Part shown: one piece after another, positions 1 to 27,780 of the stretch | How positions within the stretch are numbered: position 1 is the first letter of the stretch | Layout: each line of letters begins with the position of its first letter | Assembly (NCBI GenBank): GCA_031972375.1 | Contig: DALYEU010000017.1 | Coordinates: 9,476-37,255, forward strand | Reading direction: 5' to 3' | DNA from: a bacterium | GTDB taxonomy: Bacteria; UBA10199; DSSB01 | Length of the DNA stretch: 27,780 nt | Notes under the pieces: generated by a model | Told to the model about the DNA's origin: nothing | Seen by the model: the letters and a program-made list of their open reading frames with translations, nothing else | The model's database searches: none | Position numbers and translations under genes: made by a program

Positions 1-5
1 TTTGG

Positions 6-435: not shown

Positions 436-1839
436 TCAAGGATGGGTCATCTTGGTGGGGTCCACCCATTGGTCAAATTCTTCGGAACTTAAAAATCCCA
501 GACGCACAGCGGTTTCTTTCAAAGTTGAATCATGATGCAGGGCCTCGTGGGCGATTTTAGCGGCATTGTCATAGCCGATCTTGGGAGCCAGAGCCGTGAC
601 CAGCATCAGTGATTGGTTGAGGAAGAATTCAATGCGTTTTTCGTTGGCGGAGAGATCTTTCACGCAATAGCGCGTAAACAGTTCACAGCTGTCGGCCAGT
701 AGGGATTTAGAATGCAGAAAATTAAAGATCATGACGGGTTTGAAGACGTTGAGTTCGAAATTTCCTTGGGATCCCGCAAAACCGATGGCGGCGTCATTCC
801 CCATCACCTGTACGGCGACCATGGTCATGGCTTCGGCCTGGGTGGGATTTACTTTGCCGGGCATGATGGAAGAGCCCGGTTCATTTTCGGGAAGATGCAA
901 TTCTCCTAAACCACAGCGGGGTCCCGATCCCAACCAACGCAAGTCGTTGGCAATCTTCATCAGAGAGCAGGCTAAGGTTTTTAGGGCGCCATGGGCAAAG
1001 ACCAAGGCGTCATGGGCCGCTAGGGCAGCAAATTTATTCGGGGCGGAGATAAAGGGTAATCCCGTTAGTTCGGCGATGTAGGCGGCTGATTTTTCCGCAA
1101 ACTGGGGATGGGTATTGAGTCCCGTGCCGACGGCGGTACCACCCAAGGCGAGTTCGTAGAGTCCGGGGAGTGTGCTTTCGATGCGTTCCATATCTGCATC
1201 TAGTTGTGCAACATATCCGGAAAATTCCTGTTCCAAGGTGAGGGGAACGGCATCCTGTAAATGGGTGCGACCTATTTTTACGATATGTCGAAAGCCGAGG
1301 GCTTTTTCCTGTAGGGCATCGCGTAGTATACGAACTCGGGGTAGCAAGGTGTGGCGTAGTTCGTAGGCTGCGGCAATATGCATGGCCGTGGGAAAGGTGT
1401 CGTTGGAGGATTGCGACATATTCACATGGTCATTGGGGTGGATCGGATTTTTACTTCCCAATTTTCCTCCAGCTAATTCGATGGCTCGATTGGAAATCAC
1501 CTCATTGACATTCATGTTGCTTTGGGTTCCCGAACCGGTTTGCCAAACGTGCAAGGGAAAGTGATCGTGGAGTTGGCCGGAGATGACTTCTTCTGCTGCT
1601 CTTACGATGAGCTGGGTTTTTTCTTCAGAGAGTTTTCCCAGGGATTGATTAGTAAGAGCGGCTGCCTTTTTGAGAACGCCGAAGGCCCAGACCACTTCTT
1701 GAGGCATGAGATCACGGCCAATCTTGAAATGGGTGAGGGAGCGTTGGGTTTGGGCGCCCCAATAACGATCGGCGGGAACATCGATGGCTCCCATGCTATC
1801 GGTTTCGGAACGGGTGGATTGGGTCAGGCTTTCTTTCAT
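436..1839 (-). CDS. fumC: Fumarate hydratase class II (iron-independent fumarase)
   Basis: [13 protein letters not shown] fumarase/aspartase signature. N-terminus [35 protein letters not shown] aligns with E. coli FumC ([25 protein letters not shown]). Start moved from track's 1899 to ATG 1839..1837, which has the SD GAGGA 7 nt upstream. Confidence 0.9.
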
Positions 1840-1973
1840 GGCGTTTTCCTCTGTTAAAGGCCGTGAGGTTTGGCTGAAAAAAAGACGGGCCCCTAGCATT
1901 TCCGAGGGGAAATTGACAACCAGTGAATCGTATGGAGCGAGAGAGTTGTTTAAGGGGGGGACTGGCGACAGTT

Positions 1974-2351
1974 TTAGCGCAGGGTGTAGTCCCGAATTGT
2001 GTTGATGAGCTCTTTTTGGTTGATGGCTTTGGTTAGATAGCCCACGGCCCCAAGTTGTAGGCTTTCGTTGGCGATTTCTCCGTCGGACAAAGAAGACAAA
2101 ATAACCACAGGTGTTTTGCGCAATTGGGGGGTGCTTTTGAGTTGGCGAATAAAACCAAAGCCACTCATGCCCGGAAGCATGAGATCTAATAGGATGAGTT
2201 GGGGTTGGACCTGTTGGGCTTTTTCTAGTCCTTCCGCAGCGGTCGAGGCCGTCTCACAAAGAAAATAATTATCTTCGAGGGTGTCCTTGATGAGACGAAG
2301 CGTGTCGGCATCGTCTTCGACGATGAGGATGGTTTTTTTCGCTTTGATCAT
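1974..2351 (-). CDS. Single-domain response regulator (CheY-like receiver, no output domain)
   Basis: ILIVEDD acidic pocket, [13 protein letters not shown] phospho-acceptor Asp, VVILSS conserved Thr/Ser, YLTKA conserved Lys; 125 aa. AGGAGGAGGA just upstream of the ATG. Confidence 0.8.
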
Positions 2352-4640: not shown

Positions 4641-4808
4641 CTCTCTCTCCTTCGAGCTACCCATCACTTGAGGATTACCTACCTAAAATTTCTTCCCCCA
4701 GATCTATGGGTTCGGTTTTAAGAGGCTTGCCGGGTTTTTCCAAAACAACTTCTTTTTTTCTGCTTCGATAAGGTTCACCCGTATTTATTTCATGAGTGGA
4801 ACCGGGTG

Positions 4809-7800
4809 ATGTCCTTGAAAATTTTATCGTCTTCACAATTTCAGTTTTTTTCCGACTCAGGCCAATCTGTTTCCAAAACCGTTTCAGGGACTAAGTCCAA
4901 ATCCTCTGCCACCAGCCTATACCGACAGGCCCGTCAGCTAGAGCAAATTCATGATAGGGAAGCGTCTGAAATCATTTATAGAACCTTGATTAAGGATCAT
5001 CCCGATACTCCCCAGGCGGATCGGGCACGCCGTCGCTTGGAGGTGTTGGCGGGTCGTGGGTCTTGGGTAGATCGGGTGGAGCACTCCGTTCCTGTTTTCA
5101 TGACTGAAATGCTCTCTCCTGGTTCGATGGGGCCCATGATGGTGTCTGGTCTGGGATTTCGTCTCACCCGTTTGGGTTTGGGGTCTTGGATGACCCATCG
5201 GGGGTCTTGGTCGAGCATGGTCGGACAATTCGGAGTTCGAGGCTTGTCCTCATTGGGGGCCTTGGGAGCCGAAGGGATGGTGTTTAGTACGGCACACCGC
5301 TTTTCTGCCGCTGCTTTGGGTCAGACGGTCGACTGGAGCGGGTCCGCTTGGCTGAAAGACTGTTCTCATTCGTGGTTGATGATGGGAGGGATGCGATTCG
5401 TTGGAAGCGCGGCTCAAGGGCTCTATAGCCTGGGGCATCGAGTGTCTTCCGTCACTGGAAAAGTGGAGCGCTGGAGCGCTTTAGCTCCCGTAAGTCGTCG
5501 TTTGGCCACTGAAGGCGGCGCTGTGGGGGGGCTGTTGCTTGGCTCTTGGTTGGCGGCGGGAGCTTCTTGGAAAGATTTGGGTGAGTCCCCGCTGCTCCAG
5601 GCTTTAATGACGCATCTGCAATTTAAGATCACAGGTTCTTTGATTCATGAGGTCTTCCCTCGTCTAGGCCAATGGGAATGTATCCTAGAGCGAGGCTTTC
5701 AGCGTTTAGGTGAAAGACCCTTGAGTTCTTGGATGCCGCTGGTGTTCGAACGTTTTTTTTCGGATTTTGCACCCCAATTGTTGCGGCCAGCTTGGCAAGG
5801 GGCCTCGGTAGTACCGGGGCGTGATGGATCGAAGGCTCTGCCTTTGCAGTTGCAAATGGGAGTCCATGGGCCTCAGGCCCGTAGTTCTGGTCAGCGGCCA
5901 CTTTTCAAAGGGCGAGAAATTTCTACGATTGATAAGTTTTTTAACAGCAACATGTTGGAGCGTGGGACCCTGTTTTTAAAGGCGCTCCTTCTTTGGGAGG
6001 GGTTGAGTCCCGTCGAAAGAAAGGTGGATCAGGGGGCTTGGGTACGGATCTATCAACAACAAAGTGCTTCGTGGCGTCGTCGGATTAAAGAAAATTCGCC
6101 CGATGCCTTGTTGCCTTCGCCATTGAGCGAAAAACAGTTGTATGATTTTTTAGATACCTTTTCGGTTCTCTGGAAGGAGAGCGTCGTTTCAGGACAACGC
6201 TCTCCTGTATCTGCTGTTTTTTCTTGGCTAAAACCCCGCGATGCTTTGCTTTGGAAGAATTTTTTTACCACGGTTTTTCTCATCGGTGACAAAGGAAAGG
6301 TTCGCGATTCAAGTGTGCTGCTCCCCTGGATGGTGCAGGGCATGGACAGTCTCGAAGGGCTCCTCTGGGAGTACTTAGACTATCCACAAGTTAAAGAGTC
6401 TCGTCGATTGGAGGTTTTGGCGTTTTTAGAAGCGGAGATGGAATACTTGCCCGTGTCCAAGCGTGGGGAGCGTTTTTATAAAATTCTGCAATGGGCACAG
6501 GGTGCTCAAGACCCTCTTTTGGCCCAAAGGGCTCAGAAAGTGGTAGACCGTTGGGTTTACAAGCTTCCCAAAGAAGATTTGGCTAGAGCCCTGTTTGAGT
6601 TGTCCACCGATTTTGTGCGCTACTACGATCGTAGCCAAGGCAATGTCTCCGGATTGGTTTTGAATTGGGGAACTTTATTAGAGCGTTTAACTGCAACCCC
6701 TCGAAAAGAAGTTGTGTCGCAGGTCGTTAAGTTCTCCCGTGATCCTGATGCTCGGGTTCGAGAAAATGCACGAGTTTGGCTGCGACAAGTTGAAGCATTT
6801 TTTAAAAATAATTCCCAATACAGAACGATGGTCGAGGGTATCAGACAGGAGTTGCTCCGATCCGAAGAGTTAGAGCGGCAAGCCGATTATGTCGCTTTGT
6901 CGCGTTTGGATAAGAAAATGCGGCAATTGATCCCGGTTTCCAGAGCAAGGCGCGGCAGTGGTTTTTCTGAGGATATTGGAAAATTATGGAAGAGCGCATT
7001 GCGGATTCAAGACCCGGCGTTGCTAAGCGATGCCTTAAGGCGGCTTGTTTCGACTTTGCCCTGGTTGACGGCCTCGGAGCGAGTGGCCCATGTAATGCCT
7101 GCTATCGAGTTATATTTTTCATCTCCAAGACAGATGACTTCCCAAAACCAACAATATTTTTATGAGATCAACCGCTCTTGGATGCGGGTGTTTGGCTATT
7201 TTTCTCCCAGGGTGCTCCAGAAAATTTTTAGGAGTATTGAAATAGGCCTAGAGGATGCTCAGCCCGCAAATCAAGCTTTGTGGGAAAGCTGGATACGGGT
7301 TACCGCTTCTGTGGGTTTGGATAGGTTTCCGGAAGAGCTACAGTTGCATCTTTGGTCGTTGGGATCACGGGATCGGGAGACTAGCGAATGGGCTGTGGAT
7401 GGCCTCGTTTCTCTTTATCCACGCTTGCAACCAAAATATAAAATCGATTTTTGGCGTTATGTGAGTCGTGGTTCTTTTCCCGAGGCCCCACATTTTTTTG
7501 AGAGCTATTTTTCCACCTTATACTCTCGAGGTATCGAGCCTCTTTTAGTGTCGACCGATGGACAATGGTTACGGCCTATTCTGTGGAAGCTCTGGCAAGT
7601 TTTTCCGCACGGAAAGGTTTCTTCACCCCCCACAGATTGGAAAGCAGTTTTATTGGGCGGTAAAAAGTCAGGCCTCACTAAGGCGCAACTGGAAAAGCTC
7701 GATCAATTTTTGAAAATATTACATGACGAAGCCCAAGGCCCAGAATTGGAAGCTTCGCGTCGTGTTTTGCAAGGTTTGTGGGAGGAGGTCCGACGCCAAC

Positions 7801-7811
7801 AGTCGGAATAG
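4809..7811 (+). CDS. Large (1000 aa) hypothetical protein of unknown function. It has an N-terminal TPR-like helix pair, a Gly/Ser/Trp/Met-rich low-complexity region, and a long Trp-rich predicted alpha-helical body with at least one HEAT/PBS-like repeat
   Basis: Uninterrupted 3-kb ORF on the same strand and immediately downstream of the HK-RR pair. First ATG at 4809 (track starts at GTG 4806). No catalytic or nucleotide-binding motif was recognised. RDPDARVRENARVWL resembles a HEAT-like repeat. Degenerate GSW-containing repeats occur across aa ~95-260. Confidence 0.75.
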   Translation: MSLKILSSSQFQFFSDSGQSVSKTVSGTKSKSSATSLYRQARQLEQIHDREASEIIYRTLIKDHPDTPQADRARRRLEVLAGRGSWVDRVEHSVPVFMTEMLSPGSMGPMMVSGLGFRLTRLGLGSWMTHRGSWSSMVGQFGVRGLSSLGALGAEGMVFSTAHRFSAAALGQTVDWSGSAWLKDCSHSWLMMGGMRFVGSAAQGLYSLGHRVSSVTGKVERWSALAPVSRRLATEGGAVGGLLLGSWLAAGASWKDLGESPLLQALMTHLQFKITGSLIHEVFPRLGQWECILERGFQRLGERPLSSWMPLVFERFFSDFAPQLLRPAWQGASVVPGRDGSKALPLQLQMGVHGPQARSSGQRPLFKGREISTIDKFFNSNMLERGTLFLKALLLWEGLSPVERKVDQGAWVRIYQQQSASWRRRIKENSPDALLPSPLSEKQLYDFLDTFSVLWKESVVSGQRSPVSAVFSWLKPRDALLWKNFFTTVFLIGDKGKVRDSSVLLPWMVQGMDSLEGLLWEYLDYPQVKESRRLEVLAFLEAEMEYLPVSKRGERFYKILQWAQGAQDPLLAQRAQKVVDRWVYKLPKEDLARALFELSTDFVRYYDRSQGNVSGLVLNWGTLLERLTATPRKEVVSQVVKFSRDPDARVRENARVWLRQVEAFFKNNSQYRTMVEGIRQELLRSEELERQADYVALSRLDKKMRQLIPVSRARRGSGFSEDIGKLWKSALRIQDPALLSDALRRLVSTLPWLTASERVAHVMPAIELYFSSPRQMTSQNQQYFYEINRSWMRVFGYFSPRVLQKIFRSIEIGLEDAQPANQALWESWIRVTASVGLDRFPEELQLHLWSLGSRDRETSEWAVDGLVSLYPRLQPKYKIDFWRYVSRGSFPEAPHFFESYFSTLYSRGIEPLLVSTDGQWLRPILWKLWQVFPHGKVSSPPTDWKAVLLGGKKSGLTKAQLEKLDQFLKILHDEAQGPELEASRRVLQGLWEEVRRQQSE

Positions 7812-7891: not shown

Positions 7892-8599
7892 CTAATGACT
7901 TTCTTCGCATTGTTTCTTCACTGGGGCAGTAATTTGCAAATCGACTTCGGTCCAAGTTTTGGAAACTCCGTCTTTGCCCGTGTGTTGGACTTCACAAGCT
8001 TTATGGAGAGAGTCAAAAGCGCCTTGCGCCCCAAATTGGAGCAAGTCGATCTTTCCTTGGGCAATGAAGCTGCCTTCAGGAGTGGACTGATAAGTGAAAG
8101 GGATTTTTTGGGTATTGCCGTTCAGAGTAATGTTCAGAGTGAGTTGACCGCTTTGCTCATCTCCTTGTAGATCGGCCAAAGTACCATGCAGTTTAAAGGG
8201 AGGCGTGAGCTTTTCGAAAAAGAATTGTCGAACTGTAGCGTTGCGACCGGGATCGCCAGACTCGAAGGAATTGCCGTCGATCTCCATTTGCATACCTTGA
8301 ACCAGGGCCTTTAGGCTGGTTGCGGAACGAGGTCCCGAAAGCGTTGTCTGGTTGAAGCCCCCTTTGACCGCCGCTTTTTCGTTGAATTTGTAAGCGGTCC
8401 ACTGCACTTTTACGTCTTGTGGCTCCAAAGAATAAGTGCAGGATTTATTTTCCGGTGTGTTGGCCTGGACATTTTCTGTCGTTTGGGCCGGTTTATTGGT
8501 GGGGCTTGTGTCTGAACTTTGGTTTTTGCAGGACAAGACCGTCATGGTTAAGCTGAGTGCGATTAGACTTCGGATCCATAAAGAACGAGGGGACTGCAT
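7892..8599 (-). CDS. YceI-like (polyisoprenoid-binding family) lipoprotein
   Basis: Start re-set to ATG 8599..8597; the track's start at 8662 is a TTG. Signal peptide MQSPRSLWIRSLIALSLTMTVLSC with a lipobox-like VLSC. The mature part shows a YceI-like pattern: YKFNEKAAVKGGFN, ITLNGNTQKIPF and TEVDLQI correspond to E. coli YceI blocks FKDFDGTF, LTLNGVTKPVTL and QEVDLII. Confidence 0.55.
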   Translation of the reverse strand: MQSPRSLWIRSLIALSLTMTVLSCKNQSSDTSPTNKPAQTTENVQANTPENKSCTYSLEPQDVKVQWTAYKFNEKAAVKGGFNQTTLSGPRSATSLKALVQGMQMEIDGNSFESGDPGRNATVRQFFFEKLTPPFKLHGTLADLQGDEQSGQLTLNITLNGNTQKIPFTYQSTPEGSFIAQGKIDLLQFGAQGAFDSLHKACEVQHTGKDGVSKTWTEVDLQITAPVKKQCEESH

Positions 8600-8725
8600 G
8601 ATGGGGCTTCCTCCCTTAAGAGTTTGGGGTCCTAAAGTGTTCCGAAGCCTTGTGGATTTCAACTAAAAAATCTTAGGTTTTGTTCAAGAACATTTAAGCA
8701 GAGGTCTTGCCTCGAAGGATCTAAC

Positions 8726-9198: not shown

Positions 9199-9792
9199 TT
9201 AGCCCTTGAAATAAGGATTGGTGCCCGAAGCGTGGTCGGTTTCATCGACGACCCCGGTAAGTTGAGGGAAGGCTTGTTTTAAGCGGGTTTCGATGCCCTG
9301 TTTCACTGTGGCATCGATCATGGAGCAGCCCTGGCATCCTCCCCCAAATTTCAGATAAACCTTGTTATTCAATACATTCAGTAGTTCGGCTCGTCCGCCG
9401 TGCATGGCGAGTCCAGGATTGATTTCTTTTTCGAGAAGTTCTTTTACTTGGGACACCAAGGGATTGCTCGCGTCTAGGGGGGGTGGTTCTACTGCCGCTT
9501 GAAATTCGAAGGAGCCGCTGAGTAAGCCTCCAGCTTTGAAGTCGAGGGTTCCGGCGTTAAGGAGTTTTTGTCCCTCTTGATCAACGATGACCATAAAACG
9601 TTCGTACTCGACAAAAAAGCCGGTGCGTTTGTCCCGCAGGGGATTTTCTTCGGGAGCCAGTTGGGTCAGATCGATCATGCTAACTTCGATTTGATTGCCC
9701 AGGACTTTGAATTTGACCCCATGGGTGTTGGAGTTTTGTCCGACAAGTAGCTTGGCAAGTTGGTTCTGAGCGTTTTCTGTAAAACGAATCAT
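9199..9792 (-). CDS. nfuA: Fe-S biogenesis protein NfuA (degenerate A-type domain plus a C-terminal Nfu domain with CxxC)
   Basis: Start re-set to MIRFTENAQNQLAKLL, as in E. coli NfuA (MIRISDAAQAHFAKLL); SD AAAGGG 6 nt upstream. The C-terminal LAMHGGRAELLNV...KFGGGCQGCSMIDATVKQGIE matches E. coli LAGHGGRVSLMEI...[21 protein letters not shown]. The track's start at 9819 is a TTG. Confidence 0.8.
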   Translation of the reverse strand: MIRFTENAQNQLAKLLVGQNSNTHGVKFKVLGNQIEVSMIDLTQLAPEENPLRDKRTGFFVEYERFMVIVDQEGQKLLNAGTLDFKAGGLLSGSFEFQAAVEPPPLDASNPLVSQVKELLEKEINPGLAMHGGRAELLNVLNNKVYLKFGGGCQGCSMIDATVKQGIETRLKQAFPQLTGVVDETDHASGTNPYFKG

Positions 9793-9939
9793 GGGCATCC
9801 CTTTGGGTATCTTATACAATGACTCACAAACTTTTTATTTGCTCTGGCAGAATCCTCGAGTCTTTTCAAGATGACAATCGGTTTTCATCACTCGAGGGTA
9901 TGCTTGCAGGGTAACGATTTCAATCTCAGGAGAATGGCC

Positions 9940-11509: not shown

Positions 11510-12019
11510 TTAAATCCCGAGAATTTGTACGACCGCCTGACGGGTGCGTGGACCATCGAGGTCGATGAGGCAAAGACGCTGCCAGCGACCCCATACGGGT
11601 TGGCCATCTCTTACCAAAACAGTTTGTGAAGGGCCCCCGAACAAGAAGGCCTTCATATGGGCATCGGCATTGGTATCGCACTTGTGGTCGTCTTCGCAGA
11701 GGTTCTTCGTGCGCAGACCGCTATTGTGGAGATAGGACATCTTCTTAGGAATAAAATCTCGCAAGGCTTTATTGATATCGCCCAGTAGGCAGGGTTCGTC
11801 GAGTTCGTTCACACTAACGATACAAGTGGTGTGAAGGGCTTGGAGAGTCAGAAGACCATTTTGGATGCCGCTTTCCTTGACCCATTCGTAAGAAGTCTCG
11901 GTAAAATCGGTGATCGAGAAAAAATCGAAATCACCCACATGATTTAGAAGCTTGGGTTCTAGGTTGAGTAAATTGTTCTGGTCTGTTTGTATTTCGAGTT
12001 GTTTGTACCAGGTTTTCAT
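11510..12019 (-). CDS. YjbQ/UPF0047 family protein (secondary thiamine-phosphate synthase-like)
   Basis: LHTTCIVSVNELDEP and HMKAFLFGGPSQTVLVRDGQPVWGRWQRLCLIDLDGPRTRQAVVQILG match UPF0047 blocks (HTSASLTINEN...; HIKSSLLGSSLTIPV..G.L.LGTWQGIYL.EHRD....R.LVVTL). Confidence 0.75.
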   Translation of the reverse strand: MKTWYKQLEIQTDQNNLLNLEPKLLNHVGDFDFFSITDFTETSYEWVKESGIQNGLLTLQALHTTCIVSVNELDEPCLLGDINKALRDFIPKKMSYLHNSGLRTKNLCEDDHKCDTNADAHMKAFLFGGPSQTVLVRDGQPVWGRWQRLCLIDLDGPRTRQAVVQILGI

Positions 12020-12164
12020 AGTTTTTCCTTTTTGTCCTAACCGGATCCTGCGCCTATTTTGATGCGATTCGTGAGAGAGGGTTGCAAGTTAGAGCGAGGC
12101 GTTCGGGATTTTTGAATTTATTTTTTATGTGGTTTTGGGTTTGTCGTGTCTGCCGTAAATTTTA

Positions 12165-12584
12165 TTAAGGCAAATTGAGTTGTAGCTTTGCGGCCTCGCT
12201 CATTTTTTCGGCTGACCACGGGGGATCCCAGGTCAACTCAACCTTGGCGGAGAGCACGCCCTCAACACTCCGTACTTTTTGTTCCACTTCGCCGGGGAGA
12301 GACTCGGCCACGGGACACATGGGGCTGGTAAGGGTCATGAGAATATTTACCTCGTTTTTTTCAGAAAGGGTGATCTGATAGATCAGGCCCAGTTCGTAGA
12401 TATTCACCGGGATTTCTGGATCGTAGCAGGTTTTGAGCGCCGCGACCACCTTTGCTTCCAAGTCATGGTCTTTGCCATGGAAGGTTTCTTGTTCTGCTGT
12501 GGTTGTGGGAGTTTCTGATGTCGTTTTCATAAACGAGGCATGGGGGTCGTGGATGGCGGCTTTGTTAGCAAAGTAATCATTCAT
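12165..12584 (-). CDS. sufT: SufT-like DUF59 (MIP18 family) Fe-S assembly protein, last gene of the suf operon
   Basis: CYDPEIPVNIYELGLIY...LTSPMCPVAESL is the DUF59 core. SD GAGGAA 5 nt upstream. Its ATG overlaps the sufU stop (ATGA). Confidence 0.7.
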   Translation of the reverse strand: MNDYFANKAAIHDPHASFMKTTSETPTTTAEQETFHGKDHDLEAKVVAALKTCYDPEIPVNIYELGLIYQITLSEKNEVNILMTLTSPMCPVAESLPGEVEQKVRSVEGVLSAKVELTWDPPWSAEKMSEAAKLQLNLP

Positions 12585-13048
12585 GGAAGTTCCTCAGCCT
12601 CTGTGGAAATTACTTCGTCCCGTCCTTCGAGGGCACTATTGAGCGTATGCCAGGCTAGGCTGGCGCATTTTACCCTGGAAGGAAACTCGCAAACACCGGC
12701 AAAGACGGCGAGTTTTCCCAGGTCAGGATCGGCGGGACTCCCTGGAGAGCCGGTGACCATTTTATGAAATTTTTTAAAAAGGGATTGAGCTTCTTCTAGG
12801 GTCTTCCCTTTCAATCCTTCTGTCATGAGCGAAGCCGAGGCTTTGGAAATAGCGCAGCCATTTCCTTCGAAACTCAGCTGGACGATGCGGTCACCCTCCA
12901 GATGCAAATACACTGTGAGATGGTCGCCGCAAAGCGGGTTATAGCCCTCGGCGTGACGATTGGCTTCCTCCATTCGGTGGAAGTTTCGTGGGCGTTTGTT
13001 GTGATCGAGAATCACCTCTTGGTAGAGTTCACGAAGTTCGGAAGACAT
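12581..13048 (-). CDS. sufU: SufU-type (zinc-dependent) sulfur-transfer / Fe-S scaffold-like protein
   Basis: NPLCGDHLTVYL, GNGCAISKASASLM and PSRVKCASLAWHTL are the three Cys-containing blocks of SufU/IscU-like proteins. 155 aa. 1-nt overlap with the sufS stop. Confidence 0.8.
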   Translation of the reverse strand: MSSELRELYQEVILDHNKRPRNFHRMEEANRHAEGYNPLCGDHLTVYLHLEGDRIVQLSFEGNGCAISKASASLMTEGLKGKTLEEAQSLFKKFHKMVTGSPGSPADPDLGKLAVFAGVCEFPSRVKCASLAWHTLNSALEGRDEVISTEAEELP

Positions 13049-14319
13049 TAGGCGAAGACCTCCTTAGCTTTGTGTAGGGCCAACACCAAGGCATCGATTT
13101 CTTCCCGGGTATTGTAAAAGCTCATAGAAGCACGGGCGGTGGCGGGTAATCCGTAGCGTAACATGAGGGGCATGGTGCAGTGATGTCCGGTACGAATGGC
13201 GATACCCCTGGCGTCCAGCAGGGTTCCTAAGTCGTGGGGATGGATATCTTCCATGACGAAGGAAATGACACTCGCTTTTTGCGTAGCCTGACCGATGATT
13301 TTCAGTCCGGGAATTTCACTTAGGACTTGGGTTCCGTATTGAAGCAAATCGTCTTCATGGCGCTGCACTAGGGACCAGTCTAAAGTTTGTAGATAGTCAA
13401 TGGCGGCCCCCAATCCAATGGCTCCGGCGATGTGGGGTGTGCCTGCTTCGAATTTATAGGGAAGACTGTTGTAAGTGGTCTTTTCAAAGGTGACTTGGCG
13501 AATCATGTCACCCCCACCTTGATAAGGGCTCATGATTTCGAGCAGCTTTTCTTTTCCGTAGAGGACGCCGATCCCCGTGGGGCCGAATAATTTATGTCCG
13601 GAAAAGGCGTAAAAATCCACATCGAGAGCTTGGACGTCTACTTGCAGGTGGGGAATGGCCTGTGCTCCATCAAGCAGTACGGGAATCCCGCGAGCATGGG
13701 CTTTAGCGATGATAGTTTCGACGGGATTGAGGGTTCCAAGAGCGTTGGAGATATGTACGATGGAAACCAGCTTTGTTTTTTCGCTGAGGAGTTTTTCAAA
13801 GGACTCTAAATCGAGTTCTCCCGAATCGGAAATGGGAACCACCTTGAGTTCGATGCCAATCTGATCGCGTAGCAATTGCCAGGGGACGATGTTGGAGTGA
13901 TGCTCCATGTGGCTAATAATAACTTCGTCGCCCCGTTGCCAAGAACTTCGGCCCAAGGATTGGGCCACCAGATTGATGGCTTCCGTAGTGCCTCGGCAAA
14001 AGAGAATTTCCCGGGCATGGGCCGCGTTGAGAAATTTTTGAATTTTGATTCGAGCTGCTTCGTATTGCTCGGTGGCTCTCTCACTCAATAGGTGTACGCC
14101 GCGATGGATGTTGGCGTTATCTTCTCTGTAATAGTGATCGAGGGCTTCGATGACTTGCCGAGGTTTTTGCGCAGTGGCCGCGTTGTCTAAATACACCAGA
14201 GGGAAGCCGCGCACATTTTGGTGTAGGATGGGAAAATCCTCCCGTAGCCGTTCTATCGAAAAGCTCGAAGCGTTAGCCGAGTCTGCCCGGAGTGGAGTCT
14301 TGCTCAGAGTGGCACTCAT
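13048..14319 (-). CDS. sufS: Cysteine desulfurase SufS (group II)
   Basis: PLP-lysine block [17 protein letters not shown] and active-site Cys block [11 protein letters not shown] (SufS RxGHHC). 423 aa. Its ATG overlaps the sufD stop (ATGA). Confidence 0.9.
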
Positions 14320-15644
14320 AAAAACTTTTCTCCCTCCACCGAAAGTTCGGCGATCTTCAATCGGTTCAGCAAGCTGCGTTCTAGCTGTTGCTTTAATTCG
14401 ATTTCGCTCATGTTTTGCAACACTTCACTCGCGAAGGCGTAAGTAAGCAAGTGGCGAGCCAAGGCCTCGTCGATACCTCGGGAACGCAAGTAAAACACCT
14501 GGGTTTCATCAAGTCGTCCAATGGTTGCTCCATGGGAACAACGTACATCGTTGGCAAAAATTTCCAAGAGGGGTTTGGTGTCGACTACAGCATCTCGTGA
14601 GAGCAGTAGATTTTTATTACTCAAGGAGGACTGGGTTTTTTGTGCATGGGGCTGGACTAGGATCTGTCCGTTAAAAATCCCATGGGATTTTTCATCGAGG
14701 ATTCCTTTGTAGAGTTCTTGGCTCGTGCATTGGGGTACGGCGTGACGGATCAGGGTTTGATTGTCGAGATGTTGTTGTCCGTGTCCTAGGTAGAGACCGG
14801 TGAGTTGACAATGGGCTCCGGGTTCTCCCAGATGGGAGCGTATTTCTGTGCGGGCCCATTGTGCGCCGAGATTCAGGTTGAAGGAATGAAATTGGGAGTC
14901 CCTATTTTGTTTTACGTAGAGCCCCCCCAGGTGAAAGGCGCGTTCGTCTTCTTCTTGGATACGATAATGACTCAATTGCGATCCCGACTCAGTGATGATT
15001 TCGGTCAAGGCGTTGGTGAAGTAGGGATGTTGCGAGCGTTTTCCCGAGTAGTTTTCCACCACCACGCCTTGGGCTTGGGCCTGGGCTACGATGAGCGTGC
15101 GAGGGTGGCTCGCTGTGGCGGCTTCATCGGAGAGTGATAAATAAAGTAATTCGAGAGGTTTTCCTAAAACAGCCCCCGGTGCGAGGTGGACGAAGGCCCC
15201 ATCTTGTAAAAAGGCCGTATTTAGGGCGCTGAAGGTCTCCTCTTGCCAAGGCGCGATGCTTCCCAGATAGGGACGGATTTTTTCATCATGACTGGTGAAG
15301 GCCATTTTTAAGGGCAGTATCGTGACGCCTTGGGGTAAATCCTCGAGTCGGGAAAATTCTTGGGCGAAGTGTCCGTTGATGAAGGTGATCCGATAGTTTT
15401 TCTTAGAACCGATATTCAAGCAGTTGAGCGGATCGTAATTACGATGCTTGGGTTGATAGTCCTCGCTTGCTTGAAAAGCAGTATCGAGGAGTGGGCGCAC
15501 CGAGGTGTATTTCCAGTTTTCTTGTTGAGCGCTAGGGTAGCCCAAGGACTGAAACTGTTGGAATCCCTGTTTGCGAATTTCCTGCAACCAAGCTGGGCCC
15601 TTCGCATCGGTTTGGCGGTAGTGTTGTAGAAATTGGTCTTCCAT
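14316..15644 (-). CDS. sufD: Fe-S cluster assembly protein SufD
   Basis: SufB/SufD-family beta-helix body lacking the SufB Cys motifs. Start re-set to ATG 15644..15642 (MEDQFLQ...), which has SD GGGAG 6 nt upstream and lies 1 nt after the sufC stop. The track's 15770 extension runs back into sufC. Confidence 0.8.
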
Positions 15645-15645
15645 C

Positions 15646-16407
15646 TTAGGCTCCCGTTGCTTCCTGGGTAACCCAGGCATAACCTTTTTCTTCCAAGTGG
15701 AAGGCGAGGTCTTTATCTCCCGAGTGCACAATTTTTCCGTCTTGAAGCACATGAACATAATCGGGAACAATATAATTGAGCAGTCGTTGGTAGTGGGTGA
15801 CCACGATCATGGAGCGCCCCGGATTGCGCAAGGAGTTGACTCCGTCGGCCACGATCTTAAGGGAGTCGATGTCTAGGCCCGAGTCGGTCTCGTCGAGTAG
15901 GCATAGGGTGGGTTCGAGTAAAGTCATCTGTAAAATTTCGTTACGCTTTTTTTCTCCACCCGAGAAACCCTCGTTCACATTGCGCTTGAGATATTTGTCA
16001 TCCATTTTGAGCAATTGCATTTTGGCCTTAATCAGGGTGAGAAAATCTATGGCGTCTAGTTCTTCTAGTCCACGAGCCTTACGTTGGGCGTTAAGAGCCG
16101 TTTTGAGGAAGTAGGTGTTTCCCACACCGGGGATTTCCAGGGGATATTGAAAGGCAAGGAAGATGCCGGCGTGAGAACGTTCTTCGGGGGAAAGGTCCAA
16201 GAGATTTTTGCCCTGATAAATAATTTCCCCTTCGGTGATTTCATAATCTTCTCGCCCGGCCAAAATGGAAGACAGGGTGCTTTTTCCCGAACCATTAGGA
16301 CCCATGATGGCGTGGATTTCTCCGGGTTCCACTTTCAAATCGATGCCTTTGAGAATGGGTTTTCCATCCACACGGGCGTGCAGATTTTTAATTTCTAGGA
16401 GACTCAT
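15646..16407 (-). CDS. sufC: Fe-S cluster assembly ATPase SufC
   Basis: Walker A GPNGSGKST, ABC signature FSGGEKKRNEILQ, Walker B LCLLDETDSGLD; 253 aa, a typical SufC. Confidence 0.9.
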   Translation of the reverse strand: MSLLEIKNLHARVDGKPILKGIDLKVEPGEIHAIMGPNGSGKSTLSSILAGREDYEITEGEIIYQGKNLLDLSPEERSHAGIFLAFQYPLEIPGVGNTYFLKTALNAQRKARGLEELDAIDFLTLIKAKMQLLKMDDKYLKRNVNEGFSGGEKKRNEILQMTLLEPTLCLLDETDSGLDIDSLKIVADGVNSLRNPGRSMIVVTHYQRLLNYIVPDYVHVLQDGKIVHSGDKDLAFHLEEKGYAWVTQEATGA

Positions 16408-16452
16408 GCTGTTTTATCCTTTCAAGATTTTGTCCATGGCTCAGGGAAAATG

Positions 16453-17901
16453 TCAGCCCACCGATCCTTCTAAACTCACTCCAAGAAGTTTTTGGGCTTC
16501 GACGGCAAATTCCATGGGAAGCTCGCGAAAGACCTCGCGGCAGAAACCATTGACGATCATGTTAACGGCGTCTTCTTCGGAAATTCCCCTTTGTTTGCAG
16601 TAAAATAACTGGTCTTCTCCGATTTTGGAGGTAGTCGCTTCGTGCTCCATTTGGGCTGAATGATTTTTAATTTCTAAATACGGAAAGGTATGGGCTCCGC
16701 ATTCATCCCCCATCAATAGGGAGTCGCATTGGGAGTAATTGCGGGCATTCTCGGCGTTTTTCATGATCTTGACTTGGCCGCGGTAGGTGTTTTGACTTTT
16801 TCCCGCCGATATTCCCTTGGAGATAATGGTGCTTCGGGTGTTTTTTCCAAGATGGATCATTTTGGTTCCCGTATCCGCTTGCTGATAATTGTTGGTGACC
16901 GCAACCGAATAGAATTCTCCAATGGAGTAGTCTCCAGCCAAGACACAGCTGGGATATTTCCAAGTGATGGCGGAACCCGTTTCCACTTGAGTCCACGAAA
17001 TTTTAGAATGATGCCCTTTGCAAAGACCTCGCTTGGTGACGAAGTTATAGATGCCACCTTTGCCTTCTTTGTCGCCTGGATACCAATTTTGCACGGTGGA
17101 GTATTTGATTTCGGCTTTATCTAAAGCCACTAATTCTACGACCGCCGCGTGCAGTTGGTTTTCGTCTCGCATGGGGGCCGTGCAACCTTCCAGGTAAGAG
17201 ACGTAACTCGCTTCATCGGCTACGATTAAGGTGCGTTCGAATTGCCCGGTTTGAGCGGCGTTAATGCGAAAGTAGGTGCTTAATTCCATGGGGCAGCGGA
17301 CGCCCTTGGGAATATAGGCGAAGGATCCGTCGGTGAAGACTGCTGAGTTAAGTGTGGCAAAGAAATTGTCAGTGTAAGGGACTACCGATCCTAAATATTT
17401 TTTCACCAGTTCGGGATGTTCTTGTACGGCTTCGGAGAAAGAACAAAAAATGATTCCTAGTTCGGCGAGTTTTTCCTTAAAGGTGGTTCCCACGGAAACG
17501 CTGTCGAAAACTGCGTCGACGGCCACATTGCTAAGGCGTTTTTGTTCTTCCAGGGAAATACCCAATTTGTTGAATGTCTCCAAAATCTCGGGATCCACTT
17601 CGTCGAGGCTGTTAAGTTGTTTTTTCTTTTTAGGAGCCGAATAGTAATAGCTGTCCTGATAGTCGATGGGGGGGTATTGAACCTTGGCCCATTGGGGCTC
17701 TTTCAGGGTCAACCAATGTCGATAAGCTTTTAGGCGCCATTCTAATAGCCACTCAGGTTCGTTTTTTTTCTGAGAGATGATGCGGACAATATCCTCGCTC
17801 AAGCCTTTGGGAATGGTCTCCGTTTCAACGGATGTGACGAAGCCATATTGATATTCTTTGGAGGTTAATTCTTGGACAGCTGAATTATTTTGTTGGGTCA
17901 T
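16453..17901 (-). CDS. sufB: Fe-S cluster assembly protein SufB
   Basis: Blocks conserved throughout SufB: [23 protein letters not shown]..., [16 protein letters not shown]. Start re-set to ATG 17901..17899, which has SD AAGGAGAG and overlaps the rrf2 stop (ATGA). The track's upstream extension to 18057 overlaps rrf2. Confidence 0.9.
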
Positions 17902-18350
17902 GGTGCTCTCCTTTCTGAGAGGAAGTTTCCGGGTGCCAGGTCGGCTACCGTTGTCTCCGCCAAAAGATGGTAGATCCTCATGTTGAGTTCGGAGAGGGGG
18001 GTTTTGATTCGACAATCGTCCCATTGCGGACAGGTAATTTTTTCTTCCTTTAAACATTCGGTGACCGCCAGGGGACCCTCAAAAATTTCGGCCACGTCGG
18101 CTACGGTAATGGTTTCAGGGGACTTTGCCAGACGGTAACCGCCCTTGGTGCCGTGGACGGCCTTGATAAGACCTTTACTCGCCAGTTGCTGGAGTACTTT
18201 GGCCAAAAGGGGTTGGGGAATATGGTAGGCTTCGGAGATTTCCCGGGTGCTGGTGAGTAAATTCGAGGGGATAAAGTTGTTTTCACCCTTGCGCAACATA
18301 TGCTCGATGGCGATGAGAGCGTATTCAGTTTTTCGATTAAAATGCAGCAT
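17898..18350 (-). CDS. Rrf2-family transcriptional regulator with a three-Cys cluster (IscR/SufR-like putative [Fe-S] sensor), first gene of the suf operon
   Basis: N-terminal wHTH typical of Rrf2 ([19 protein letters not shown]...). The C-terminal [15 protein letters not shown] has three Cys positioned as the cluster ligands of IscR/NsrR-type regulators. Confidence 0.8.
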
Positions 18351-18360
18351 AAGTAATTTT

Positions 18361-18380
18361 TAGACTTTTCTAGTCGTATA
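18361..18380. promoter_or_regulatory. Candidate Rrf2 operator: TAGACTTTTCTAGTCGTATA containing a GACT-N5-AGTC palindrome, 11-30 nt upstream of the rrf2 start. The 10-mer TAGTCGTATA recurs inverted at 18457-18466 and as a 9-mer at 18496-18504
   Basis: Read directly from the sequence. GACT/AGTC half-sites with 5-nt spacing resemble, from memory, the E. coli IscR type-1 site core (GACTrwwwyAGTC). There are three copies within 150 bp of the operon's control region. Confidence 0.4.
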
Positions 18381-18400
18381 AAAACCAAAAATAAAAAACA

Positions 18401-18440
18401 AAAAAACCTTTAAATATTATGGTTTTTTAGTTTTTTTTCT
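18401..18440. terminator. AT-rich hairpin AAAAAACC-N12-GGTTTTTT flanked by T-runs on both strands. Possible bidirectional terminator (encapsulin operon 3' end), or an A-tract/UP-like element of the rrf2-suf promoter
   Basis: Stem 18401-18408/18421-18428 (only 2 GC pairs), followed by TTTTTTAGTTTTTTTT on the plus strand and TTTGTTTTTTATTTTTGGTTTTT on the minus strand. Confidence 0.3.
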
Positions 18441-18633
18441 CCCTAAGAATCTTAAATATACGACTATCATGGTCTTGTATAAGGCGCAACGGGCGAGTCG
18501 TATAGGGAATTTTTAAATAAATGTAAAGGTGCATTCTCGAGGTGTTTGTGGCGCGAATCGCCAGAGCTGGAGGCAAGACGGCACACACCCATATTACCGG
18601 GGGGAGGGGAATATGGTGGGGCGAAATTTGAGT

Positions 18634-19446
18634 TTAGGGGGCGGAGTGTAGCAGGGGTACTGCGGCTTGGGGGCTCAAATTTTGGAAAGTGAGACTTTCT
18701 TCCAGGTACAGCGTTACCTCTGTTTCGTTGTGATGAAGGTAGCCCACTGAAAAATCTTGACCTACGGTCAACTGAAAATCCCCACCGCGTAAACTCAAAA
18801 CGATGGCGCCTTTGAGGGCTGGGGCCCACACGATAGGGCCTTCGAGTTCTCGTTTGACGTGTTGTAGGATGGGGTAGCCCCCTTTGGAAGTGGTCTGAGA
18901 GAGTCCTTGGTAGCATTGAGGGCCCAAGGCGATGGCATAGGGCCCTTCGATACCATGGCTTCGCAAGAGGTTAGTGGCTTCGGCGACCAGGCGGGGATAT
19001 TTTTCATAGTCGTCGGAAATCTTAAGAGACTGCTTTTTGGCTGCTGTGAAAATTCCCTCAATGCCTGCCTCGGAGTTTCCCTGAAAGATAAGTTGGTCTT
19101 CTGTGAGCGCGGCGCGTTGAGCTGCCTGAACGACGGCATCAAGGTTGGGATTGGCGCAAGCTCGGTCGATGGCTTCAAGCTCGACGAGTTTTAGGGTGAA
19201 AGGAACGCGAATTTCTACGAGTGGTTGCACTTGGCGGATTCCAAGCTCCACTCCGGAGCTTGAGTTTTTTCCTAATTTTTCCACTCGCCCCAAGGGAATG
19301 GAACCGAAGGCCCAACCATGGGGTCCTGAAAAATCGACGAGGCGACGCCCAGCCAGGCCTAATTTAAGGGTCCGGGTGGCTTCTTGAGAGAGGGCGTTCC
19401 AGGCTTCGGTCGATAGGGGAGCGAGGTGGCGTTTTAAATGGCTCAT
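18634..19446 (-). CDS. Family-1 encapsulin nanocompartment shell protein (Linocin M18 / HK97-fold)
   Basis: 270 aa, alignable end to end with T. maritima and M. tuberculosis (Cfp29) encapsulins. MSHLKRHLAPLSTEAWNALSQEATRTLKLGLAGRRLVDFSGPHGWAFGSIPLGRV matches MNNLYRDLAPVTEAAWAEIELEAARTFKRHIAGRRVVDVSDPGG. LRGGDFQLTVGQDFSVGYLHHNETEVTLYLEESLTFQ matches TRGGDFDLQLGTDVAIGYASHDTDTVRLYLQETLTF. Its ATG overlaps the stop of the upstream cargo gene. Confidence 0.85.
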   Translation of the reverse strand: MSHLKRHLAPLSTEAWNALSQEATRTLKLGLAGRRLVDFSGPHGWAFGSIPLGRVEKLGKNSSSGVELGIRQVQPLVEIRVPFTLKLVELEAIDRACANPNLDAVVQAAQRAALTEDQLIFQGNSEAGIEGIFTAAKKQSLKISDDYEKYPRLVAEATNLLRSHGIEGPYAIALGPQCYQGLSQTTSKGGYPILQHVKRELEGPIVWAPALKGAIVLSLRGGDFQLTVGQDFSVGYLHHNETEVTLYLEESLTFQNLSPQAAVPLLHSAP

Positions 19447-19829
19447 GATTTAAGGTCTCCTTTGAGGCTACCGATCTTGAGGGATTCATCGTGGCTCTGT
19501 GTTTTGTCGGGGGCATCGTTTACTGAGGAGTTTCCTTCTAAGGAAAGCAGGTCTCCTTCAGTAAAGAGATAGGTGCGTAGTTGCTCATCCAGTTGGGGGT
19601 CGCGACGCCGCAACCATTCTAAGGTGATGGCGGCGTGCTCTTTTTCTTCGTCGCGGTTATGTTGCAGGATGGCCCGCAATTCTGCATCTTCGGTGGCATC
19701 GGCTCGCTGATCGTACCAGTCGGCGGCCTCGAGTTCTTCGATGATGGAAATATAAGCTCGATGGCGCTCGATGGTTTCAGGCTTGAGCTTTTCTTTTTCT
19801 TCGTGAAGTCCCATGCTGGCACCGCTCAT
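19443..19829 (-). CDS. Encapsulated ferritin-like protein (EncFtn) cargo with a C-terminal encapsulin targeting peptide
   Basis: HRAYISIIEELEAADWYDQRADATEDAELRAILQHNRDEEKEHAAITLEWLRRRD matches the EncFtn core (EExxH iron site; from memory very close to R. rubrum EncFtn). The C-terminal ...DESLKIGSLKGDLKS fits the family-1 cargo-loading peptide (..SLxIGSLKG..). True start is ATG 19829 with SD GAGGAG 6 nt upstream; the track's 19856 start is a GTG inside a palindrome. Confidence 0.8.
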   Translation of the reverse strand: MSGASMGLHEEKEKLKPETIERHRAYISIIEELEAADWYDQRADATEDAELRAILQHNRDEEKEHAAITLEWLRRRDPQLDEQLRTYLFTEGDLLSLEGNSSVNDAPDKTQSHDESLKIGSLKGDLKS

Positions 19830-19846
19830 GTTTTGCTCCTCATTGG

Positions 19847-19856
19847 GTGATATCAC
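19847..19856. promoter_or_regulatory. Perfect 10-bp palindrome GTGATATCAC just upstream of the EncFtn SD, next to an AT-rich stretch (GATGGATATTATTG). Candidate operator
   Basis: Read directly from the sequence, at -18 to -27 relative to the EncFtn ATG. Confidence 0.3.
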
Positions 19857-20055
19857 TTGATGGATATTATTGTGTGGTTTGGGAATTAGAGCAGGGAAGC
19901 GAATTATTCTTCAAGAAAAAATCCAAGTTTGATTTTATGAGGCCATGGGAGAAGTGAATGCTTTGGAGATGGCAATAGGGAGAGAGTTCAATGGATTGCT
20001 TCCCACAAATCCCTGTTGTTAATTTCATGGGTTAGGAAAAAATAAGGCCTTGTTC

Positions 20056-25275: not shown

Positions 25276-25348
25276 CCGCCAGCCTCGACTTTCCGTTCTT
25301 GGTGAACTGAGTTTCAAATCATCCATCTGATTCAAGGAGAATCCCCCC

Positions 25349-27780
25349 ATGTCCGAGTCCGCGGAAGTGCTTCCAGTCAATATTGAAGACGAGATGCGGG
25401 ATGCTTATTTGGATTATTCGATGAGCGTTATCGTAGGCCGCGCTCTTCCCGATGTCCGCGATGGGCTCAAACCGGTGCATCGAAGAATTCTCTACGCTAT
25501 GTTTCGCGAGGGACTCCTCAGCAGTAAGCGTTTCAGTAAGTGCGCGGGTGTGGTGGGTGAGGTTCTCAAAAAATATCATCCCCATGGTGATTCTGCGGTC
25601 TACGATGCCTTAGTGCGCATGGCTCAAGGTTGGAATTTGCGCTATCCCCTCATCGAAGGTCAGGGTAATTTTGGATCTATCGATGGAGATCCTCCAGCGG
25701 CCTATCGTTATACCGAAGCGCGTCTGATGAAAGTCGCCGAAGAAATGTTGGCCGATATCGATAAAGATACCGTCGATTTTTCCCCCAACTTCGATGACTC
25801 CACTCAAGAGCCCATGGTGTTGCCCACCCGGATTCCCAACTTACTTATCAATGGTTCCGATGGAATTGCCGTGGGTATGGCCACCAAGGTACCTCCGCAT
25901 AATTTACGGGAGGTCATTCGAGCCCTTTTGACTTTGATTGAAAATCCACGTTTGTCTCTGGAAGAAGTTTTAAAAATCATTCCAGGTCCCGATTTCCCCA
26001 CGGCGGGTTTTATCAGTGGCCGTGAGGGAATTCGTCAGGCCTACACTACAGGGCGAGGCATCATTCAAATGCGGGCACGGGCTTTGGTGGAGCCCATCGC
26101 CAAGGGGGATCGTGATTCCATTGTGATTTCTGAAATTCCCTATCAAGTGAACAAGGCTAAATTGATCGAGCAAATTGCTTATTTAGTTCGCGATGGTAGG
26201 GTCGAGGGTATCGCCGACTTGCGCGACGAGTCCGATAAGGACGGAATTCGCGTCGTGGTGGAGTTGAAGAAAAATGCTAATTCCAGTGTCGTGCTCAATC
26301 AGCTCTATAAGCACACCGCCATGGCCAGTAGTTATGGGATCATCCTATTGGCCATTGTCCATGGACAGCCCCGTATTTTGAATTTGCTCGAGTTGTTGCA
26401 ACTTTTTCTCGACCATCGAAAAGAAGTCGTAACGCGGCGAACGCTGTTTGAATTGCGTAAAGCCGAAGAGCGCGCCCATCTGTTAGAAGGCTTAAAAATC
26501 GCTGTAGAAAATATCGACGAAGTTGTCGCGTTAATCAAGCGGTCCAAAACCCCTCCCGAGGCCAAAGTGGGTTTGATGGAGCGTTTTGGTTTAAGCGAGG
26601 TTCAGGCCCAGGCCATTTTGGAGATGCGTTTACAACGCTTAACAGGTTTGGAGCGCGATAAAATCATCCAAGAATATGAAGAAGTTTTGCAGTTGATTCA
26701 AAAGCTCAAGGAGATTTTGGGCAGTGAAAAATTAATCTTCAAAATCATTTCTGACGAGCTTGAGGAGATCCAAAAGAAATTTGGTGACGAACGGCGCACT
26801 GAGATTACGGGTGCGCAGCAAGAACTTAGTGTTGAAGATCTGATTCAAGAAGAAGACATGGTAGTGACGATTTCTCACCATGGTTACATTAAGCGCAATG
26901 CGGTGAGTTTATATCGTGCTCAGCGGCGCGGAGGAAGGGGCAAAACGGGCATGGTGACCCGTGACGAAGACTTCGTCGAAAATTTATTCATCGCTTCCAC
27001 CCATCATTATCTCTTGGTGTTTTCAACTTGGGGAAGGCTTTATTGGGTTAAGGTTCATGAGTTGCCCCAAGCGGGGCTTACGGCCAAAGGAAAGGCCATC
27101 GTCAATCTCTGTTCGTTTTCTCCCGAAGAGGGTGTGGCGGCGGTATTGCCCATCAGGGAATTTCAGGAGGGGAAATACGTGGTGATGTGTACCCGCAAGG
27201 GGGTCATCAAAAAGACGGAGTTAATGGCCTTCAGTAACCCCCGTGTCGGAGGCATTATCGCCCTCTCCATCGATGAAGGAGACCAGCTTATCTCCGTAGC
27301 TTTGACGGGTGGTCAAGATGATCTGTTTCTCGGTACCGCCGAAGGGCAGACCATTCGATTTCATGAAGATGGGGTTCGTGCGATGGGGCGAACCGCCCGT
27401 GGAGTTCGGGGAATTCAATTGGCCGAGGAGGACAGTGTGGTGGGAATGGAGGTTATCAATGCCGATGCCGCCATTCTTACGGTATCCGCAAAGGGTTTGG
27501 GGAAACGTACTCTGTGTGACGAGTATCGGGTTCAAGGGCGTGCGGGATCCGGGATCATCACCATGAAAGTGACCGAAAAAACCGGTCGGGTGGTGGCGCT
27601 TAAGCAAGTGACCGAAAAAGATGAGGTCATGCTCATCACCAACAGTGGAAAAATCATTCGTATGGAAGTGAAAAATATCTCCTTGATTGGGAGAAATACC
27701 CAAGGAGTCCGCCTCATCAATCTCGAAGAAGGAGAGTCGGTGAGCGCCGTCGCGAAGGTCGCGGAGGGCGAGGAGGAGGG
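25349..27780 (+). CDS. gyrA: DNA gyrase subunit A, 5' 810 codons; the ORF runs off the window's right edge
   Basis: [50 protein letters not shown], the active-site Tyr region [10 protein letters not shown], and GyrA-box-like C-terminal beta-pinwheel repeats. An acidic tail (EGEEE) begins at the window end. SD AAGGAGA with an 8-nt spacer. Absent from the ORF track only because it has no stop inside the window. Confidence 0.95.

Follow-up and report, generated by a model that had tools for sequence, protein, structure and literature searches.

We propose that two adjacent minus-strand genes in a 27,780-nucleotide stretch of bacterial DNA (GTDB lineage UBA10199; DSSB01; assembly GCA_031972375.1, contig DALYEU010000017.1, positions 9,476 to 37,255; hereafter the window) form a functional two-gene operon for a family 1 ('classical') encapsulin of the EncFtn/Flp type, in which the gene for an encapsulated ferritin (EncFtn) is followed by the gene for the shell protein. 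We estimate the probability of this reading at about 0.92. Both genes are intact, and the same locus was found, identical, in four independent metagenome assemblies. The operon type is entirely standard, because an EncFtn homolog lies immediately upstream of the shell gene at about 70 of the 80 reference-genome encapsulin loci that we compared (the window locus and 79 others), and because this order agrees with the canonical layout in the catalogue of 2,383 family 1 operons, where the shell gene is usually preceded directly by its cargo gene (Andreas and Giessen, 2021; PMC8346489). What is mildly new is its position next to the suf genes, together with a Dps/bacterioferritin-like gene in the equivalent slot of related genomes.

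The 270-residue product had been assigned in the original prediction, which was made from the sequence without database searches, to the Linocin-M18/encapsulin shell proteins, and the profile searches bore this out. It matched PF04454 (Linocin_M18) with an E value of 1.4e-86 and 290.3 bits (cut-off 24.3) over profile positions 1-253 of 253, and the NCBIfam equivalog NF041155, named 'family 1 encapsulin nanocompartment shell protein', with 306.8 bits (curated cut-off 100) over positions 1-261 of 261. Every motif quoted for the shell and for the cargo is present; those of the shell are the N-terminal xLAPLSxxAW, followed by GRRLVDFSGPHGW, RGGDFQLTVGQDFSVGY and TLYLEESLTF. In a search against the PDB, the shell of Rhodospirillum rubrum (9ry4, E = 1.5e-79) ranked first and that of Haliangium ochraceum (7odw, E = 1.3e-72) second, and the shells of mycobacteria and T. 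maritima came next; the matches to T=3 and T=4 shells, of the M. xanthus EncA and Q. thermotolerans types, were far weaker (1e-15 to 1e-19). The AlphaFold2 model of the shell, with a mean predicted local distance difference test score (pLDDT) of 75.6 and a predicted template modelling score (pTM) of 0.74, adopts the HK97-type fold of N-terminal helix, P-domain, E-loop and A-domain and superposes on the T=1 shells of H. ochraceum, M. tuberculosis, E. coli and K. pneumoniae with template modelling (TM) scores of 0.80-0.83. Nearly all of its top 50 structural matches are natural encapsulins, and the remainder are engineered encapsulin-derived cages.

The shell sequence is otherwise rather isolated. 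It forms a singleton cluster and is at most 61% identical to anything else among 5.8 billion clustered proteins, with the exception of a sister metagenome-assembled genome (MAG), GCA_031972915.1, which encodes a shell fragment 76% identical and an EncFtn 87-90% identical to the window proteins. Beyond the sister, the best relatives are 55-61% identical and come mostly from MAGs of Proteobacteria, Actinomycetota and Myxococcota. Comparison with the sister locus (L010) gave ratios of nonsynonymous to synonymous substitution rates (dN/dS) of 0.08 for the cargo and about 0.085 for the shell, the latter being only qualitative due to saturated dS. Both genes are under purifying selection.

Encapsulins share the HK97 fold with phage capsids and are often confused with them (PMC8346489). 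The 270-residue protein could thus be imagined as the major capsid protein of a phage or prophage, and the gene pair as a viral remnant. We consider this effectively excluded. No PHROG family matches either protein, and phage genes such as those for a terminase, a portal or a protease are lacking throughout the window, where the operon is surrounded by housekeeping genes (suf, cls, hydrolase, acyl-CoA dehydrogenase, HU and gyrA). The equivalog-level match to the family 1 encapsulin model, a dedicated cargo gene that immediately precedes the shell gene and encodes a loading peptide, and a GC content similar to that of the flanks also argue against a viral remnant. Several database homologs are still named 'Linocin M18' or 'bacteriocin', which would make the shell a secreted bacteriocin, but these names predate the encapsulin structures, and the same sequences have since been solved as icosahedral shells, leaving this interpretation with a negligible chance of being correct.

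The 128-residue product of the upstream gene is an EncFtn, as originally predicted. It matched PF22277 (EncFtn-like) with an E value of 3e-37 and 126.7 bits (cut-off 27) and, by a narrow margin, TIGR04535 ('encapsulin-associated ferritin-like protein') with 130.1 bits (cut-off 125), so that the profile searches suggested in the original prediction returned significant full-length matches for both proteins. Its confirmed motifs are DWYDQRAD...HNRDEEKEHAAITLEWLRRRD and the C-terminal end ...DESLKIGSLKGDLKS. The best match in the PDB was R. rubrum EncFtn (Rru_A0973, E = 1.9e-40), in an alignment that extends through the C-terminal peptide. The EncFtn monomer is a two-helix hairpin with a short third helix, and the four-helix ferritin-like bundle and its di-iron site arise only between two chains within the decamer (PMC5012862). 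The model of the window protein has the two long helices of such a monomer (residues 17-45 and 49-76), a third helix at residues 78-89 and a disordered tail thereafter, and it superposes on Rru_A0973 chains (5da5, 5l89 and 6suw) with TMt values of 0.83-0.88 and root mean square deviations of 1.8-2.5 Å. The original prediction had expected a four-helix EncFtn fold of the cargo. The protein does match EncFtn structures, but a four-helix fold is the wrong test for a monomer because the bundle forms only between two EncFtn chains.

The metal-binding residues are also retained. In R. rubrum EncFtn, the di-iron ferroxidase center is formed by Glu32, Glu62, His65 and Tyr39 contributed by two chains, and Glu31 and Glu34 form a metal site where the chains of the dimer meet (He et al., 2016; PMC5012862). 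In an alignment of 23 sequences including Rru_A0973, all of these residues were invariant, as were Trp38, Glu61 and Glu64, and the window protein carries them at the same residue numbers as Rru_A0973.

The C terminus of the cargo ends in a disordered linker and a cargo-loading peptide (Table 1), and the cargo model has pLDDT below 50 for residues 102-126. The peptide ESLKIGSL can be aligned with SLGIGSLKGE in R. rubrum and 117-GSLGIGSLR-125 in H. ochraceum EncFtn, in agreement with the loading peptide proposed in the original prediction. The H. ochraceum peptide has been resolved bound to a hydrophobic site on the P-domain of the shell, and the core loading motif was defined as GxLGIxxL (Ross et al., 2022; PMC8791618). 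The match to SLxIGSLKG on which the original prediction relied holds insofar as the peptide is recognizable: the Leu, Ile and Leu anchors are kept together with Ser and Gly, and an xSLxIGSL-type motif was found in all 120 homologs analyzed, with the family consensus GSLGIGSL. Both glycines of the core motif are nevertheless replaced, by Glu and Lys. The first position of the peptide is variable among the homologs (Gly in 90 of 120), and the fourth is Gly in 108 of them and Lys in only two, namely the window protein and its sister. Judged by its sequence, the peptide is a recognizable, slightly unusual variant that lies inside the natural variation, at its edge.

The translation start of the cargo was defined by comparison. 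The mechanically listed open reading frame begins at a GTG codon and spans 19443..19856 on the minus strand (137 residues), and the original prediction had corrected it to an ATG at 19829 preceded by a Shine-Dalgarno sequence. This correction was right. The true start is ATG 19829, because the Shine-Dalgarno sequence, the sister-species comparison and the public gene calls agree: nucleotide and protein conservation with L010 starts at the Shine-Dalgarno sequence and the ATG codon, with diverging sequence further upstream, and the public record holds the exact 128-residue product, called independently also on four other assemblies, and lacks the 137-residue form. The spurious GTG does lie within a perfect palindrome, GTGATATCAC, as had been pointed out. 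We rejected this palindrome as an operator since it is absent from L010 and no rarer than expected by chance (at least one match in 25 of 100 shuffles); it probably has no functional role. The only non-coding elements upstream of EncFtn shared by the window and L010 are the Shine-Dalgarno sequence and TTGAAG-N18-TGnTCTAAT, which is likely the EncFtn promoter, judging from this conservation, although a strict sigma-70 consensus scan gave no match for it. The ATGA overlap between the two genes is real and located at 19443-19446, where the ATG of the shell gene and the TGA of the cargo gene share four nucleotides.

Table 1. Coordinates of the encapsulin operon, its sequence elements and its neighbors. 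Positions refer to the window unless a related locus is named.
Feature	Position	Strand	Remarks
EncFtn (encapsulated ferritin) cargo gene	19443..19829	minus	128 residues; start ATG 19827-19829
Family 1 encapsulin shell gene	18634..19446	minus	270 residues; ATG overlaps EncFtn TGA
Metal-site codons	19635..19739	minus	Entry-site E31/E34; ferroxidase E32, Y39, E62, H65; plus W38; EELEAADWY ... HNRDEEKEH
Disordered linker (~residues 102-114), cargo-loading peptide and KGDLKS tail	19446..19526	minus	
Cargo-loading peptide ESLKIGSL	19464-19487	minus	Residues 115-122
Shine-Dalgarno sequence GAGGAG	19836..19841	minus	6 nt upstream of EncFtn ATG; AAGGAG in L010
Perfect palindrome GTGATATCAC	19847..19856		10 bp; contains spurious GTG
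Candidate promoter	19885..19914	minus	-35 TTGAAG (19909-19914), 18-nt spacer, extended -10 TGcTCTAAT (19885-19893)
Hairpin 3' of shell stop, CCATATTCCC-N8-GGTAATATGG	18589..18616	minus	Without U-tract; modest, z = -2.3
Rrf2-suf promoter/operator block	18351..18535	minus	~185 nt; TTTACA-N17-TATAC(G); palindromes 18363-18375 and 18462-18474
Rrf2 regulator	17898-18350	minus	From profile searches
SufB	16453-17901	minus	482 residues; ATGA overlap with Rrf2 stop; agrees with public gene calls
Downstream block (Rrf2, SufB, SufC, SufD, SufS, SufU, DUF59/FeS_assembly_P protein, YjbQ)	11510..18350	minus	
Dps-like/Bfr-like ferritin in the slot of relatives	L086 5416-5832; L087 3234-3650	minus	138 residues; opposite strand

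By analogy with characterized homologs, the assembly state, ferroxidase activity, cargo loading and mineralization can be proposed as follows. The operon would be transcribed from a promoter that precedes the cargo gene by about 50-85 nt, and the ATGA overlap may couple the translation of EncFtn and the shell. The shell protein would self-assemble, most likely into a T=1 icosahedron of 60 subunits with a diameter of about 24 nm. EncFtn would form iron-dependent decamers, in which ferroxidase centers made of Glu32, Glu62, His65 and Tyr39 of two chains would oxidize Fe(II). The linker of about 13 residues and the peptide ESLKIGSL would tether these decamers to the hydrophobic cleft that the shell P-domain presents to the lumen, and the Fe(III) product would mineralize within the shell. 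EncFtn of R. rubrum is a metal-dependent decamer with ferroxidase activity that does not store iron unless the shell is present, and regular iron nanoparticles were obtained only in the EncFtn-encapsulin complex (PMC5012862). The compartment may thereby store iron at high capacity and detoxify Fe(II).

Four caveats apply to this proposal. The Glu and Lys in place of the glycines of GxLGIxxL could alter the binding strength of the loading peptide. The shell model is of moderate confidence, with residues 40-55 (the HK97 E-loop region) and 190-193 poorly modelled. The T=1 assembly is deduced by similarity only, because the best solved relatives (E values of 1e-79 to 1e-43) include documented T=1 shells such as that of H. 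ochraceum. The promoter, finally, is a footprint shared by only two species, those of the window and L010. Nothing that we found contradicts the assignment as an EncFtn encapsulin operon.

The closest known system is that of R. rubrum, consisting of the shell Rru_A0974 (9ry4 and further entries) and the cargo Rru_A0973 (5da5; loaded complexes 9rzu, 9s05 and 9sqr). Both systems have the cargo gene followed by the shell gene, the shells can be aligned end to end, and the cargo proteins are 59% identical and share an arrangement in which a C-terminal SLxIGSLKG peptide comes after a disordered linker. In the PDB, the R. rubrum cargo chain comprises 140 residues instead of 128, the linker being shorter in the window protein, and its peptide reads GSLGIGSL instead of ESLKIGSL. 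Unlike the window, a Rhodospirillum MAG locus (L043) among the 79 others has no suf genes nearby. The H. ochraceum Enc:EncFtn complex (7odw, 7oe2 and 5n5f) has a T=1 shell of 60 subunits (PMC8791618). The window shell model has a TM score of 0.81 to 7oe2_A at about 45% identity, and the cargo core is about 57% identical. The H. ochraceum peptide keeps the glycines of GxLGIxxL where the window peptide has Glu and Lys, with the same Leu/Ile/Leu anchors. Dps-like and bacterioferritin-like cage ferritins perform the same cellular job as an EncFtn compartment, namely iron oxidation and storage, but unlike the window EncFtn their monomers are four-helix bundles that assemble into a cage by themselves, without a separate shell or a loading peptide. 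The original prediction had considered this instance of the family unannotated. Public sources give no product name for either gene, but the gene calls and Pfam assignments had already been precomputed, and the NCBI naming models would label both the shell and EncFtn automatically.

Upstream of the operon lie divergently transcribed genes for an alpha/beta hydrolase, a cardiolipin synthase (cls) and an acyl-CoA dehydrogenase. Downstream, the gap between the shell stop codon and the Rrf2 gene is 283 bp, placing the encapsulin operon upstream of Rrf2-sufBCDSU on the same strand. We treat the suf block as context outside the encapsulin operon proper. Independent assemblies of different samples show this junction unchanged, and it is therefore no assembly chimera. 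Neither Rrf2, SufB, SufD nor SufU was found within 10 kb of the shell gene at any of the 79 other reference loci, where weak SufC matches proved to be generic ABC ATPases, so the suf adjacency is specific to the lineage of the window. A search of the accessible literature yielded general reviews only and no report of a linkage of encapsulins to a suf operon or to Rrf2. As for the listed reading frames, the mechanical SufB frame (16453-18057, minus strand, 534 residues) begins too far upstream, so that 160 nt of it overlap Rrf2; the real start is at 17901.

This position raises the question of whether the encapsulin is co-regulated with, or read through into, Rrf2-sufBCDSU and acts as an iron buffer or donor for SUF, having displaced an ancestral Dps/bacterioferritin-like store. 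The short gap on the same strand, the junction reproduced in independent assemblies and the lack of such an adjacency at the other reference loci are in line with this idea. Between the operon and Rrf2 there is only a modest hairpin without a U-tract, and no canonical intrinsic terminator was found on the minus strand of 18351-18633; this missing terminator in the 283-bp gap may allow coupling by read-through from the encapsulin operon into suf. The C-tract in the hairpin loop (18599-18606) differs by one C between the window and the otherwise identical locus L002 (CCCCTCCCCCC vs CCCCTCCCCCCC), which reflects a length polymorphism of the homopolymer or else an error in assembly.

On the other hand, Rrf2-suf has its own promoter-like element and putative operators, which are conserved and older than the encapsulin insertion. 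The control block is conserved in the window and in the related loci L085 (~2200-2393), L086 (~7370-7554) and L087 (~3700-3875). Homology with these relatives begins at about 18535, and 18536-18633 therefore belongs to the encapsulin side. The palindromes in the block have the core GACYN5RGTC; the motif TATACGACT has three occurrences, and of the three exact matches in the window, two lie inside 18351-18535. The palindrome arms covary, being GACT..AGTC in the window and L085 and GACC..GGTC in L086 and L087, which suggests a dimeric Rrf2-type operator. We take the motif to resemble the E. coli IscR type 1 site with a shorter spacing. Upstream of EncFtn, neither this operator, even allowing one mismatch, nor a Fur-box-like site was found (the best match to the latter, 11 of 19 positions, is background), and this operator search demonstrated no shared regulation of the encapsulin operon with suf.

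The related loci also bear on this question. L086 and L087, whose SufB is 87-88% identical to that of the window, share with it cardiolipin synthase on one side and Rrf2-suf on the other; of the two, only L086 also has the acyl-CoA dehydrogenase and hydrolase flank. Between these flanks, both carry the gene for a Dps-like/Bfr-like ferritin, 82% identical between the two and not found in the 27.8-kb window. Its best match in the PDB was 8w1d ('Dps-like protein', 3.7e-16), with bacterioferritins at 1e-11 to 1e-8. This ferritin has no loading peptide and no detectable similarity to EncFtn (BLASTP E = 8.2), and we rejected homology between the two on this basis. The simplest reading suggested by these loci is that the locus swapped one iron-storage module for another. 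This swap would predate the split between the window lineage and its sister, since the left flank and the operon are common to L010 as well. There is no clear compositional island: the GC content of the operon (0.50-0.53) resembles that of the flanks (0.45-0.52), giving no clear sign of recent transfer. The slot in L086 holds an additional MscS-like channel gene, and an IS200/Y1-type transposase gene lies between the acyl-CoA dehydrogenase and cardiolipin synthase genes of L086 (1213-1950, plus strand), indicating some mobile-element traffic in the neighborhood.

The sister MAG gives a different picture. Its encapsulin operon is on contig 146 (L010), cut within the shell gene, and its Rrf2-suf genes are on contig 15 (L085), where an unrelated 698-residue open reading frame without an NCBIfam match (2-2095, minus strand) lies upstream of Rrf2. 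The adjacency of the encapsulin operon and suf is thus not conserved even in the sister, because Rrf2-suf is found on another contig behind the 698-residue gene. This arrangement suggests either that the region was rearranged or received an insertion relative to the window, or that the bin mixes strains. In addition, a single lineage represents a single evolutionary event, which could be coincidental, and the ferritin of the relatives is on the opposite strand, so that the 'same slot' may be merely a permissive intergenic site. Taken with the separate control of suf, this makes a regulatory or read-through coupling to SUF rather unlikely. The stronger version, in which the encapsulin replaced the ferritin beside suf and is coupled by read-through as a dedicated iron buffer or donor for SUF, is more doubtful still.

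The remainder of the window contains further genes related to iron or Fe-S clusters beyond suf, coding for an NfuA-like Fe-S carrier, a DUF59/FeS_assembly_P protein and a class II fumarate hydratase (436-1899, 9199-9819 and 11510-18350, all on the minus strand). Class II fumarate hydratase is the iron-independent fumarase. An open frame of at least 816 codons (25331-27780, plus strand) runs off the window end and reads, by its motifs, as DNA gyrase subunit A (gyrA). The frame lister skips it because it has no stop codon within the window, which explains an apparent 2.5-kb 'gene desert'; this frame could be used as a phylogenetic marker for placing the host. SufB proved too conserved for that purpose, its matches at 82-85% identity carrying only the names 'Deltaproteobacteria bacterium', 'bacterium' and Acidobacteriota MAGs. 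Two open reading frames, of 1001 residues (4806-7811, plus strand) and 256 residues (7892-8662, minus strand), have no NCBIfam match, and the former coincides with the highest local GC content of the window (0.557 at 5001-6000). In almost all 1-kb intervals, whichever way the genes point, GC skew is above zero and AT skew below it, and the cumulative GC skew climbs steadily; this places the whole window on a single replichore with strong strand bias. No rRNA, tRNA or Rfam family was found in the window.

The operon adds one further, somewhat divergent EncFtn encapsulin to the more than 2,000 known family 1 operons, and the Gly-to-Lys variant of its loading peptide may be of use in the engineering of cargo loading. 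The occurrence of a cage ferritin in some genomes and an encapsulated ferritin in others within one slot would support a functional equivalence of the two and could offer a clean comparison between them. The release of iron stored in encapsulins was treated as unresolved in a 2024 review (PMC11202242). With its encapsulin operon located upstream of suf, this lineage is a candidate for asking how encapsulins give up their iron and where it is then taken.

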